Below, piece by piece: positions 28,147-31,874 of a DNA stretch of 64,000 bases. Position 1 is the first letter of the stretch. Every line of letters begins with the position of its first letter. A program made the translations under genes and the position numbers. Origin of the DNA: an uncultured Phycisphaerales bacterium (GTDB lineage Bacteria > Planctomycetota > Phycisphaerae > Tepidisphaerales > Tepidisphaeraceae); assembly GCA_963755915.1 (NCBI GenBank), contig CAVWLP010000002.1, positions 320,001 through 384,000 on the forward strand, written 5' to 3'. The notes below the pieces were generated by a model. That model was not told the origin of the DNA. It did not search any database and saw nothing but the letters and a program-made list of their open reading frames with translations.

Positions 28147-28529
28147 CGTTTGCCGCAACAGCGGAGGGAAAATGGTGGCTTGGTTGCACGGGAATTGCAA
28201 ATTTTACGGGAAAGTTGCGAGTGGCGAGTGAAAGGCAATGTCGTTTACTCGCAGAGCAATCGCATATGGCCTGAGAAAACCGAAAGGCCCCCATTCTAAC
28301 TCCGGACAACTCGGGACTTCGCTTCGCTGTGCCTTGAATCCGCCGGGGAGGCCGGATTTACATTGAAAAAAGAAGGAAGAGTATTTTCGGTTACGGTCTG
28401 GGTGACGAGGAAATGCGGGGGCTCGAATATCCATGAAAGGCTTCCCCGATCAACAAAAAAATTCTCCTCGCGAAAAGCGGTTACTTCTTTTTCATTCCGA
28501 GACCTCTTCGTCCGTCTGCCGGCTGGTGA

Positions 28530-28700
28530 CTGGCCTCTCGGCGGTCCATATATCCATTCGTGCTGGCCGGGCCCGATCAACAGCGTTTGGCCGAGCGGCA
28601 CATGATCTCATCCGGCGCGGGCGGCCCAATTATAACGTGGCCTCTCGAGCCTGAATTGCTTCGGGCTCATGGCCAATTCGAGCCAGGGCTGGCCCACTTC
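28530..28700 (-). ncRNA. Putative bridge/seek RNA of the IS110 element (boundaries approximate)
   Basis: Two internal loops whose strands match the reconstructed target and the circle junction (see findings). Confidence 0.7.
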
Positions 28701-29829
28701 CGGACGAGATCAGTTCCTTATGTCTTTTGCTTCCCGGTCTTGGGGGCGGCACCTCCTGATAATCCTGGTTGTTGTTCCACATTGAATAGACGATCCGACA
28801 TATGCGGTTGGCGACGGTGATGTAGCCGCGACCGCGGTCCTGTTTGCCGTTGTTGGTACGGCGATTGAAAAGTTCTCGCAAAAAAGCGTCCCTTTGCACT
28901 GCCGAGTGGGCGGCCTGAATAAAGGCCCACTGAAGGGTAGTGCGACCGGCGTGACCAAGTCGGCGGCCGATGGGCTTGGCATCGCGATCTTCTCCGCTGT
29001 CGTCGGCCTGCGGCGCCAGCAGGCTGTATTGGAGCAGGCATCGACTGGAGGAGAAACGATCGATTCGGCCGATCTCGGCGACCAGCGTATATCCCAGCAC
29101 GGTGGAGATGCCCGGCACGGTCATCAGGCGCTGGCCGATCTCCGATCGTTTCATGGTCGCGCGGAACCGGCGGGTGGCCCGTGCGATCAGGCGACGCAGA
29201 GAATCCAGCAGCATGAGATCTTCCTTGAGCGTCTGGCGTCCTGAGAGGCTCAGGGTCTTGTCCTCGGTGAGCAGCGACAGGAAACGCCGGCCCTGCACAC
29301 CGAAGAGGTCGGTGAGCTCGCTGACGATTCCATGGCGGTGCAGCGTCGCGTGAATGCGATTTTTCAACTGCGTTTGAGCCTGAACGAGGGTCATCCGATG
29401 GCGCAGCAGCTCCCGCTGATCACGAATCTCGCGTGGGGCCAGCCAGACTTCCCACCAGCGCTTCATGATGCCTCGCTTAAATATCGGTTTTTCGTTCCAG
29501 AGTTCACTGAGCAGGTCGGCATCGACCTTGTTGCTCTTGGCGATCCCGCGTCCTTCCCGCCATGCCGCCACTTTGCGGCTCGAGGCCAGGTGGGGCTGCA
29601 TGTTCAAAATCTGCAACTCATCGCTGAGCCATCCCCAGCCAAATGTCGCTTCCAGGATCACCGGCGTGCCTCGCGGCCACTGAGCGATTCGCTCTCGAAG
29701 CTTTTGGCGATCCAGGTGATCCAGGCGTTCGCGAGCAATGACCTTCCCGGAAGCGTCGCGCAGACTGGCGGACGAGAACTTCCGATGGACGTCCAGCCCT
29801 ACCTGAACTACCTTGTCGTATAACTTCAT
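28630..29829 (-). CDS. IS110 family recombinase/transposase
   Basis: VGLDVH, ILEAT, KSNKVDA, LMTVPGIS, EIGRIDRF, APQADDSG. Confidence 0.93.
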   Translation of the reverse strand: MKLYDKVVQVGLDVHRKFSSASLRDASGKVIARERLDHLDRQKLRERIAQWPRGTPVILEATFGWGWLSDELQILNMQPHLASSRKVAAWREGRGIAKSNKVDADLLSELWNEKPIFKRGIMKRWWEVWLAPREIRDQRELLRHRMTLVQAQTQLKNRIHATLHRHGIVSELTDLFGVQGRRFLSLLTEDKTLSLSGRQTLKEDLMLLDSLRRLIARATRRFRATMKRSEIGQRLMTVPGISTVLGYTLVAEIGRIDRFSSSRCLLQYSLLAPQADDSGEDRDAKPIGRRLGHAGRTTLQWAFIQAAHSAVQRDAFLRELFNRRTNNGKQDRGRGYITVANRICRIVYSMWNNNQDYQEVPPPRPGSKRHKELISSGSGPALARIGHEPEAIQAREATL

Positions 29830-30422
29830 GGCTATCTCCTTGTGTGAATGACACCAAAACCGGAATGTTAACTTCCGGCAGGGAGATGGCCTTTCATGCG
29901 ATTATAAAACGCGGTTCCGCCGCGATAGCACGTGGCTGCCCCGGTGACGTTCGGTGCGACCTTGAGGTGTTGGGCGGGAAAGCGCCGTGCAAGCACGGCG
30001 GCTACACGGGGAGAAGCTGGGAACGGCCTCCGGCCTGAGTTTCGCGGAGTACTGCCCAAGCACCTCCGGTGCTTTCGGCGGCAGGGCGCGTAAGGAGTTT
30101 CGAGCACATGCTCGACCGAGCTCAATCGCCGCTGGGCTTCCGTCAGGAATCCGCCTTGTCCGACCTCCCCGGTGGATACTTTCAATTCGTGGCATTTGTG
30201 GCGAAACAGGGCCGGACGAGGGGGATGGCGCCGTTCGGCCTATATTGCAGGGCTCGGACGATTGGTCTGCGAGGAATATGTGGGTAATGGCAAGCGGAGT
30301 GCGAGGGGAGGGGAGAAAAGGGCACATGGGATTGCCCTGCATTTGCTGGCAGCACGCGACTCCCGGCAATTGAACAATGCCACGCCTACCATTACATTGC
30401 CGCTTTAACGGGAGACAGCGTT

Positions 30423-31874
30423 TTGTCCCTTTCACTTCCCCAGTTGGACCCCGAATACGAAAAGAAGGAGAAATGCGGCCTCTTCGGAATCTGGGGGACG
30501 GCGGATGCTTCCAAGATCACCTACCAGGCGCTGTTTGCGCAGCAGCATCGGGGTCAGGAATCGGCGGGGATGGCCGTCAGCGATGGGACCAACATCACCG
30601 GGCACACGGGAATGGGGCTGGTCAGCCAGGTGTTTACGCCGCGGATGCTGAATGAGGAACTGGCGGGGAAAGCGGCCATTGGACATATTCGATATTCGAC
30701 TACCGGCTCGAGCCAGCTTTGCAATGCGCAGCCGCTGCTTCGGCAATATCTCAATGGCCCCGTGGCGGTGGCGCATAACGGGAACCTTGTGAATGCCACT
30801 TTGCTCCGGCGGATGTATGAGGAGCACGGGCATATCTTCCAGAGCACGACGGACACGGAAATCATCGTGCATCTTCTGGCCAAGCCGACGCATGCGCAGA
30901 AACTCGATCCGCTTCCGCACGTGTTGAAGCATCTTCAGGGGGCGTACAGCCTGGTGTTTCTTTTTCCGGACCGGATCGAAGCGTGCCGCGACCCGTTTGG
31001 CGTGCGGCCGCTGGTGGTCGGGAAAATGCCGGGTGGGCAGTGGTGCGTGGCAAGCGAAACGTGCGCGTTTGACGCGCTGGGGGCGACGTTTGAGCGGGAA
31101 GTTCTGCCCGGCGAAATCGTGCGCATCGACGACGATGGAATCACCGCGCGAAAGTTTGACAACCCGGCGCCGCACGGCGCCAGGTGCGCGTTCGAGCACG
31201 TTTATTTTGCCAACCCCGGGAGCAAAGTCTTCGGACAGACGGTTCACGTGGTGCGGCAGCGCCTGGGCCGGCAGCTTGCCATCGAAGCGCCCGTGTCGGC
31301 GGATTCCATCATGCCGATGCCGGACAGCGGCCGATCGGCGGCGCTGGGATTTGCGCAGCAATCAAAGATTCCGTTTGAGGAGGGGATCGTCCCGAATCGA
31401 TTCGTGGGCCGGACGTTTATCCTGCCCAACCAGATCGCCCGCGACCGGGCGGTGGCGATGAAGCTGAACATCATCGCGGATGTGGTGGAGAACCGGCGGA
31501 TCGTGATCGTGGAGGATTCCGTCGTTCGCGGCACGACCACGCGATCGAAGATGCGGGCCATTCGAGCCGCGGGGGCGAAGGAAATTCATCTGCGCGTCTC
31601 CTGCCCGCCGATCCGGCATCCGTGCTTCTACGGCATCGACTTCCCCACCAGCGAAGAGCTGATCGCCCATAACCGCAGCGTGGATCAGATCCGCGATTTC
31701 CTGGAGGTTGACAGCCTGGCGTATCTTTCGCTGGAGGGCCTGCTCTCCTGCATGAAACCTCCCAAGGACGATTACTGCACCGCCTGCTGGAGCGGGCATT
31801 ACAAAATCCCCATCGACCATCCCCAGAGCAAATTCAGTTTTGAGCGCGACCAGTTGCAAATGTTCGACCCGTGA
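30423..31874 (+). CDS. purF: Amidophosphoribosyltransferase
   Basis: CGLFG after propeptide, QHRGQESAG, GHIRYST, VEDSVVRGTT, PCFYGIDF. Confidence 0.97.
   Translation: MSLSLPQLDPEYEKKEKCGLFGIWGTADASKITYQALFAQQHRGQESAGMAVSDGTNITGHTGMGLVSQVFTPRMLNEELAGKAAIGHIRYSTTGSSQLCNAQPLLRQYLNGPVAVAHNGNLVNATLLRRMYEEHGHIFQSTTDTEIIVHLLAKPTHAQKLDPLPHVLKHLQGAYSLVFLFPDRIEACRDPFGVRPLVVGKMPGGQWCVASETCAFDALGATFEREVLPGEIVRIDDDGITARKFDNPAPHGARCAFEHVYFANPGSKVFGQTVHVVRQRLGRQLAIEAPVSADSIMPMPDSGRSAALGFAQQSKIPFEEGIVPNRFVGRTFILPNQIARDRAVAMKLNIIADVVENRRIVIVEDSVVRGTTTRSKMRAIRAAGAKEIHLRVSCPPIRHPCFYGIDFPTSEELIAHNRSVDQIRDFLEVDSLAYLSLEGLLSCMKPPKDDYCTACWSGHYKIPIDHPQSKFSFERDQLQMFDP

Follow-up and report, generated by a model that had tools for sequence, protein, structure and literature searches.

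RNA-guided recombinases of the IS110/IS1111 elements are under development as programmable DNA-insertion tools. In the part of the account of Siddiquee et al. (2024, PMC11187229) used here, the guide RNAs of IS1111-type elements, called seekRNAs, follow the transposase gene tnp and their match to the top strand of the target lies 5' of the match to the bottom strand. In many IS1111 bridge RNAs the donor-binding bases are found in a multiloop, according to the corresponding part of Durrant et al. (2024, PMC11208160), and the subterminal inverted repeats are given as 7-17 bp by the latter authors and as usually 11-13 bp by the former. We examined a stretch of 64,000 nucleotides (hereafter the window) from an uncultured Phycisphaerales bacterium (GenBank assembly GCA_963755915.1, contig CAVWLP010000002.1, positions 320,001 to 384,000 of the forward strand), which carries on its minus strand a recombinase gene followed by a long non-coding region. 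This locus is very probably an IS110-family insertion sequence of IS1111 architecture that has been recently active. Its mechanism is the one already published, and the element adds another example from the planctomycetes.

The recombinase (transposase) open reading frame (ORF) matches the Pfam models PF01548 (DEDD_Tnp_IS110; N-terminal DEDD/RuvC-like domain; E = 7.4e-9, 36.0 bits against a cut-off of 29) and PF02371 (Transposase_20; C-terminal domain; E = 1.6e-13, 51.3 bits against a cut-off of 21.3). In an alignment of seven sequences, the window and six homologues, residues D13, E60 and D103 and the motif P273-x4-S278-G279 are invariant, and the fourth acidic position, D105, is less certain since it is D in five sequences and N in two. 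Conserved protein homology stops near residue 360-380 of 399. The inverted repeats are 10 bp long, perfect, subterminal and conserved among the homologues, as is characteristic of the IS1111 group. Considering the 2-nt core, the terminal extensions ATCG and GA give a 6+2 or a 4+4 arrangement according to how the core is counted. The stop codon is followed by ~200 nt of non-coding sequence, whereas the start codon is separated from the left end by 73 nt, and the guide RNA region (28714-28500, minus strand) is located downstream of the gene, as in the IS1111 group. Pfam domains, subterminal repeats and 3' non-coding region hence agree with the original prediction, made from the sequence alone, of an IS110-family element with IS1111 layout.

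The window's genome (6.63 Mb in 3 contigs) contains four copies of the element, 100% identical across its entire length. Each of the four occupies a different, diverged copy of one and the same dispersed repeat, with no variation in insertion position or orientation. Given these four identical copies at one repeat position and orientation, the element has been recently active and is site specific. The recombinase was found in 12 of 141 genomes of the same family, the window's own genome being counted, and a scan of prokaryotes with one genome per species yielded 61 loci with 29-83% identity, the majority from metagenome-assembled genomes labelled Phycisphaerae, Tepidisphaeraceae or other Planctomycetota. 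An alignment of the 3' regions was built from 29 non-redundant, anchorable loci and comprises 327 columns. Identical extra copies (L054, L055, L084, L088; L063, L064; L067) were dropped from it, as were loci with an RNA region that is absent or too divergent (L072, L074, L077, L086, L087, L089-L109).

Natural empty copies of the repeat read GGCTCGAATATAAAACGCGG with a single TA, and occupied sites show TA at both junctions, which corresponds to an insertion with no target-site duplication. The comparison of empty and occupied sites leaves three bases (TAT, plus strand) ambiguous. This ambiguity is settled by the homologues, in which 'TA-ATCNCATGAAAGGC' at the left and 'CCTTTCATG[G/A]A-TA' at the right are conserved, and of the 34 loci with both junctions visible, all but L087, which has AA at its right end, carry TA at each (33 of 34). 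Since the homologues keep TA at both junctions, the core is TA and the element spans 28430..29904. The true target reads GGCTCGAA-TA-TAAAACGCGG on the plus strand, where the joined ends should read CATGCGAT-TA-TCCATG. In the orientation of the element, the predicted circle junction is CATGGA-TA-ATCGCATG, or in a longer form ...GCCTTTCATGGA-TA-ATCGCATGAAAGGC.... The boundaries first proposed, 28428..29906, are therefore off by 2 nt at the right and give the element one TA too many, and so does the circle junction ...gatta-TA-tcc that came with them; the proposed empty target, gggctcgaa-TA-aaacgcgg, is short of one TA. TA as the core was correct, but calling it unusual was not, as it is the rule in this clade.

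In the minimum free energy (MFE) fold of the window RNA, a long stem surrounds an internal loop that has UGGCUCGAAUU on its 5' side, ACGUUAUAAUU on its 3' side and a GGCC...GGCC hairpin in between. The closing helix of this hairpin (columns 44-47/91-94) is paired in 95.7% of cells, with pair 46/92 being UA 17 times and CG 7 times, and in columns 28-31/107-111 every cell is paired (100%), three of the pairs showing changes on both sides. The 5' guide equals the core and each element's own right-end flank in reverse complement. The longest string shared by guide and flank has a mean of 7.44 when both come from one element and of 4.23 in cross pairs; the former value was reached in 0 of 10000 permutations (n = 27). 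At least 12 different flanks are represented among those tested (GGGTCC, GGGTGGG, GCCGGC, GGATGGG, GGTCGGG, GCGCGGG, GCCACGGG, TTCGAGCC and others). Furthermore, a contig from an RNA library, belonging to a ~91% identical relative, spans the RNA region and displays guide changes at 28678 and 28683 that are matched by flank changes at 28426 and 28421.

On the 3' side of the loop, a conserved UA is aligned with the core. This 3' guide agrees with the element's own left flank in 26/26 cases at position -1 (0.78 of cross pairs), in 15/26 at -2 (cross 0.27) and in 10/26 at -3 (cross 0.32), with background levels farther out, and the own value was reached in 1 of 10000 permutations. Judging from these comparisons, the 3' target guide is real but short, 1-3 nt plus the core, which agrees with the multi-copy relatives, where right flanks are constant and left flanks differ. 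Each side of the internal loop hence matches a different strand of the target; the two matches share the core and covary with the target sequence, as is characteristic of a bridge or seek RNA. As a control for chance, the non-coding region (290 nt) was compared with both strands of the true 20-nt target; the longest exact match is 9 nt, a length reached in 7 of 1000 mononucleotide shuffles. It is covariation across the homologues, rather than this shuffle count, that we regard as the decisive evidence for the guides.

Downstream of the target-binding loop, the RNA displays a variable hairpin (GUGC...GCAC), a conserved AAUG[G/A]AUA and a third small hairpin, in this order. The second of these contains the guide for the right end (RE), which is the left-donor guide (LDG). 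Its G/A position follows the element's own right end (CATGGA or CATGAA) in 27/27 cases, and the base after the core is the first base of the adjacent flank, also in 27/27 (G in 24, T in the window and L049, A in L057). This product-matching base beyond the core presumably resembles what is known as the 'handshake guide' of bridge RNA.

The original prediction had proposed four RNA strings as guides, segments 1 to 4 (GGCTCGAATT at 28684-28675, CCACGTTATA at 28640-28631, ATGAGATCAT at 28611-28602 and ATGGATATA at 28557-28549), and all four are located where it placed them, together with the flanking hairpins GGCC..GGCC and GTGC..GCAC. Its assignment of the 3' region to the bridge/seek-RNA architecture is borne out, the target loop and the right-end guide being backed by covariation in 26-27 homologues. 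Segment 1 retains its 9/10 match and covaries with the right-end flank. Segment 2 is a real guide, but its 8/10 match used a register 2 nt off the one that the homologues share, in which the match is far shorter; the missing TA and the T-rich flank account for this register. Recombination at the neighbouring TA was considered as a source of the 8/10 register and rejected, given that the empty sites disallow an element 2 nt longer. Segment 3 (ATGAGATCAT), put forward as the right-donor guide, does not covary with the one left-end base that varies and is a helix strand in the preferred fold. Segment 4 is indeed the right-end guide, but it matches the donor at 7/9 rather than 9/9 positions and the right-end/flank junction at 8/9. 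Hence, the suggested check for guide-target covariation, once run, upheld three of the four segments, one of them in a shortened form and another register, and did not uphold segment 3. A candidate programmable recombinase orthologue may reasonably be inferred.

The RNA can adopt two competing folds, which share one 5' strand. In fold A, the MFE fold for the window, this strand is paired with a middle element; in fold B it is paired with a near-identical element ~100 nt further, and a long-range helix, GCRCCGG/CCGGYGC, closes the donor region. Across the 29 homologues, 87.8% of cells are paired in fold A, with 10 pairs changed on both sides, and 91.1% in fold B, with 13 such pairs, compared to 30-44% when the helix partners are slid by 1-3 columns. 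Pair 11/126 of fold A is GC in 22 homologues, GU in 5 and AU in 2, and is never unpaired. In stem C of fold B, pair 13/313 is CG in 18, UA in 8 and UG in 3, and column 13 taken with column 124 instead is CG in 18 and UG in 11. In helix b of the same fold, pair 119/306 is CG in 25 and UA in 2, and pair 120/305 is AU in 24 and GC in 3. Under constrained folding, fold A is favoured in 20/29 homologues and fold B in 9/29 (median difference 3.2 kcal/mol). Segment 3 ends two bases beyond the fold A helix. In these folding models, fold A would correspond to a short target-only RNA and fold B to a long form with the donor bases in a multiloop. The published descriptions, as far as used here, contain parallels for short and long RNA forms (PMC11187229) and for the multiloop (PMC11208160).

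Table 1. Coordinates of the element, its gene, the predicted RNA features and the target repeat in the window.
Feature	Position	Strand	Remarks
Insertion sequence	28430..29904	-	1475 bp including one copy of the TA core
TA core copies	28428-29 and 29903-04		the former beside the right end (RE)
Left-end subterminal inverted repeat	29889..29898	-	CATGAAAGGC; preceded by terminal extension ATCG (29902-29899); 'TA-ATCNCATGAAAGGC' kept in homologues
Right-end subterminal inverted repeat	28432..28441	-	GCCTTTCATG; followed by GA and the TA core
Recombinase (transposase) ORF	28630..29829	-	399 aa; stop codon TAA at 28632-28630
Shared 5' strand	28700..28711	-	GAUCUCGUCCGG; pairs with the middle (fold A) or the far 3' element (fold B)
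5' target guide (segment 1)	28675..28684	-	GGCUCGAAUU; complementary to core and right-end flank over 9 contiguous nt
Hairpin within target-binding loop (GGCC...GGCC)	28639..28674	-	conserved closing helix
3' target guide	28628..28638	-	ACGUUAUAAUU; UUA corresponds to left-end flank, UA pairs with core, AU is first left-end bases
Fold A 3' strand (middle element)	28615-28604	-	CCGGAUGAGAUC; holds most of segment 3 (28611-28604)
Segment 3, candidate right-donor guide	28602..28611	-	AUGAGAUCAU; also most of the fold A 3' strand
Variable-length hairpin 2 (GUGC...GCAC)	28560..28601	-	outer two pairs in 28/29; inner pairs and length vary
Guide for right (RE) end, LDG (segment 4)	28550..28557	-	AUGGAUA plus U (28550) matching first flank base
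Fold B 3' strands	28504..28522	-	CCGGCAG (28522-28516, helix b); CGGACG..GAG (28514-28504, stem C)
-35-like hexamer TTGATC	28448..28453	-	near right end; 16 nt from GATAAT formed at the junction after end joining
Target repeat, left half	28377..28429	+	nhmmer census
Target repeat, right half	29903..29960	+	begins with second core copy

The ORF of the window extends 78 nt into the RNA and its stop codon consists of the core-pairing UA and the next A. The proposed overlap of the ORF end with the target loop is thus confirmed, and it is conserved across the clade: the ORF reads into the RNA in 28/29 homologues and stops 101 nt short of it in L062. In 24/29 it enters the RNA in one frame, through linkers of widely differing length, and encodes a conserved tail, S-R-P-G-T-G-Q-P-xx-P-M-V, with the stop codon 34-82 nt inside the RNA. 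Another frame is shared by the window, L049 and L069, and L060 uses a third one. The window's clade accordingly reads the tail-coding nucleotides in a different frame, the element being evidently active nonetheless. A full-text literature search found no description of an overlap between ORF and bridge RNA in IS1111 elements. [quoted passage not shown] Given two nearly isoenergetic folds, translation and folding could switch the transcript between messenger, short seeker RNA and two-loop bridge RNA, and an RNA mimic of the left end (AUCUCGU, for the ATCNCAT of the DNA) would mask the candidate guide for that end; we consider this scenario speculative and rather unlikely. The gene/RNA overlap and the alternative folds are the only features that might inform on self-regulation of these elements.

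At the other end of the gene (29830-29893, minus strand), the bases that adjoin the left inverted repeat on its inner side (AGGCCATCTC) can pair with the Shine-Dalgarno/start region (GAGATAGCC-ATG). This pairing is kept in homologues by matched changes (ATCTC/GAGAT, GTCTC/GAGAC, GCCTC/GAGGC), with a best match of 8-10/10 in 24 of the 30 rows compared, and is likely to act as a translational brake.

The existence of two folds raises the question of which parts of the RNA are used. It could be that only a short single-loop seekRNA is functional (fold A, ~108 nt, 28711-28604) and that the ends are recognised by the recombinase via the subterminal repeats and the flanking target sequence. Such a division of labour would be in line with the 82-nt seekRNA of ISEc11, which with its target matches alone sufficed for transposition in the part of the study considered (PMC11187229), with fold A being the MFE fold for the window and the more stable one in 20/29 homologues, and with the proposed right-donor guide having no covariation. 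However, AUGRAUA tracks the right end in 27/27 homologues and the next base tracks the flank in 27/27 (T in the window's clade, A in L057), and helix b and stem C, which exist in the long form only, carry compensatory changes (119/306, 120/305 and the UA found in 8 homologues at 13/313), so that we judge a short RNA acting by itself to be improbable. Somewhat less improbable, though still doubtful, is that all four proposed guides are real, AUGAGAUCAU being a right-donor guide on the unpaired 5' side of a donor loop that helix b would close. Fold B, the one with the higher covariation values (91.1%, 13 double-change pairs), leaves segment 3 unpaired; the segment is placed where a right-donor guide is expected by analogy with the target loop, and at 6/7 positions it is complementary to the left-end ATCNCAT of almost all homologues. 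Nevertheless, the base opposite N, the sole variable position of the left end, is A in 28/29 rows (C in L051) despite N being G, C, T or A, the pyrimidine expected opposite the A of CAT is C in most homologues, and the two core positions are mismatched in most of them. Moreover, segment 3 and the 5' strand form a perfect helix (12 bp in the window), and the GC, GU or AU found at 11/126 is never replaced by an unpaired state.

Considering the reading of the ORF into the RNA in 28/29 homologues, in one frame in 24/29 with the shared S-R-P-G-T-G-Q-P..P-M-V, the 3' region could also be conserved as a C-terminal coding tail of the recombinase, with the flank matches being coincidental. Coding does not explain why the variable codons are the reverse complement of the own flank (0/10000 permutations), nor the compensatory base pairs and the conservation ~150 nt beyond the stop codon, and the window's clade uses another frame and yet is active, as judged by its four identical copies; a mere coding tail is thus extremely improbable.

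Several observations weigh against the preferred reading, an IS1111-type element with a guide RNA that addresses both the target and its own right end. Three of 27 homologues show a poor match between 5' guide and flank, with a longest string of 4 in L052, 3 in L056 and 5 in L057; off-target insertions, mis-set ends or later flank changes may be the cause in L052 and L056. In the window itself, the 5' guide matches nine contiguous bases (GGCUCGAAU) and then has U for A at the second core base, a mismatch likewise seen in L060 and L081, and the 3' target guide matches UUA and the core only. The donor-side covariation comes from about three independent changes: the flank base changed twice, and the right end went from G to A in a single clade, a group of ten loci (L070-L082). 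A covariation search for a left-end (right-donor) guide established none, in a left end that varies at one position only. Against Rfam 15, the RNA region gave no matching family at a permissive threshold. The solved structures of IS621 (8wt6, E 7e-4) and ISCro4 (9t56, E 9e-4) resemble the recombinase weakly and in the C-terminal domain only. Finally, the search for a circle junction covered assembled contigs only and none contained it, contigs of RNA libraries can derive from DNA, and the RNA, the ribonucleoprotein and the circle are predictions.

In the mechanism proposed for this IS1111-type element, it most likely moves as a circle in which the joined ends create a promoter. TTGAC or TTGAT is found at the place of the -35-like hexamer in 29 of 32 distinct right ends, and end joining would put it 16-17 nt from [G/A]ATAAT across the junction. 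The window's version is TTGATC-N16-GATAAT and replaces the N18-TATAAT of the original prediction, a reading that resulted from the wrong circle junction. A promoter scan of the linear element found no internal sigma-70-like promoter. The junction promoter would drive one transcript consisting of the recombinase gene and the 3' structured guide RNA, to which the recombinase would bind. In the first internal loop, the 5' side would pair with the strand bearing the TA core and 6-9 nt of the future right-end flank, and the 3' side with the other strand, at the core and 1-3 nt of the other flank. In the multiloop region, AUGGAUA would pair with the right end of the element and the core, and the base past it would anticipate the new flank in a handshake-like manner. 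The recombinase, with its DEDD domain and Ser-Gly motif, would then exchange strands at TA without target duplication, and the element would collect in the 113-bp repeat because a matching site is found at the centre of the repeat.

Just before the -35-like hexamer, a run of seven U is present at 28455-28461 (minus strand), common to the window, L049, L050, L060 and similar loci. It is preceded by small hairpins in some loci, and a terminator scan gave no call there; it may be a terminator that ends the long transcript within the element. A contig in which 28410 is joined to 29903, with 18 other letters in between, was considered as an excision product and rejected, as it is an empty repeat copy of a relative.

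An nhmmer census of the 113-bp target repeat returned 49 hits, that is 41 uninterrupted hits (a few of them partial copies) and the two halves of the 4 occupied copies, giving ~45 copies genome-wide (e.g. G000:C2:1266987-1267100). The variant CTCGAATAT-AAAACGCGG is present in 7 of the ~45 copies and all four insertions are within that class. Among the 13 copies with CTCGAATAT, 4/7 of those having AAAACGCGG are occupied versus 0/6 of the others, which is weak evidence of specificity on that side; the 11-mer CTCGAATATAA is present six times unoccupied in the genome. The intact repeat has no family match in Rfam 15 at a permissive threshold, and consensus folding of its two strands gave weak structures only (-5.5 and -6.3 kcal/mol). 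Its minus strand bears a terminator-like hairpin, CGCGGCGGAACCGCG, followed by a T-run at 29924-29910, which places the element just after a possible terminator. Between the target repeat and a purF-like gene at 30423, positions 29959-30062 (plus strand) match the AdoCbl-II riboswitch at 20.2 bits (E 0.23), below the gathering score of 36.5; this weak match was treated as chance.

The multi-copy relatives (L053, L055, L084, L088; L061, L063, L064) insert beside short palindromes, TA-GGGTCCGC....GCGGACC. Their flank on the palindrome side (right) is constant and the left one differs between copies and is nearly arbitrary, hence site recognition in the clade is strongly one-sided. The closest relative, L049, with 83% protein identity, is bounded by an inverted repeat of 81 nt (L049:1362-1442 and 2891-2971; 94% complementary), and on its left side an inverted copy of the right-end tip and half a target repeat replace the normal left tip TA-ATCG. 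It looks like an element having two right-type ends, which could stem from a rearrangement at the subterminal repeats or from an assembly effect.

The locus adds a well-delimited, evidently active orthologue from an under-sampled phylum, with about 29 relatives from which natural pairing rules can be read. According to these, the guide is long (6-9 nt) for one of the flanks and very short (1-3 nt) for the other, the core is TA, a single base matching the product adjoins the right-end guide, and a further such base (A) usually follows the core in the 3' target guide. Compared with the IS1111 seekRNA elements ISEc11, ISPa11 and ISKpn4, as they are described in the part of Siddiquee et al. (PMC11187229) used here, the element shares the recombinase with DEDD domain and Ser-Gly motif, the subterminal repeats, the long 3' non-coding region, the single internal loop with the top-strand match 5' of the bottom-strand match and the promoter formed by end joining. 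Likewise shared are insertion into repeated, partly palindromic sequences with no duplication and the short and long RNA forms. By the same description, it differs in its ORF of 399 aa versus 330-350 aa, its inverted repeat of 10 bp versus the usual 11-13 bp, its extensions of 4 and 2 nt plus a 2-nt core versus 7+3 or 6+3, and an RNA that starts inside the ORF, whereas theirs is described as following the gene. The host here is a soil planctomycete, and these elements were compared by their published description.

With the bridge recombinases IS621 and ISCro4 (Durrant et al. 2024, PMC11208160, in the part considered; PDB 8wt6 and 9t56), the element has in common a two-part RNA that would read target and donor, guides that include the core, pairing of the two guides of a loop with opposite strands, asymmetric guide lengths and one base beyond the core that matches the recombination product. 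In contrast to them, its RNA is at the 3' rather than the 5' end with a reversed guide order, its core is TA and not CT, and its donor bases are in a multiloop. Furthermore, the protein similarity is in the C-terminal domain only (E 7e-4) and no right-donor guide is established here. As in the available descriptions of ISPpu9 and ISPpu10 of Pseudomonas putida, IS110-family elements that target repetitive extragenic palindromic (REP) sequences, multiple copies occupy one position of a dispersed intergenic repeat, but the repeat here measures 113 bp and has weak predicted structure, unlike the short palindromes of REP type. Short palindromes (GGGTCCGC..GCGGACC) are, however, the target of several homologues.

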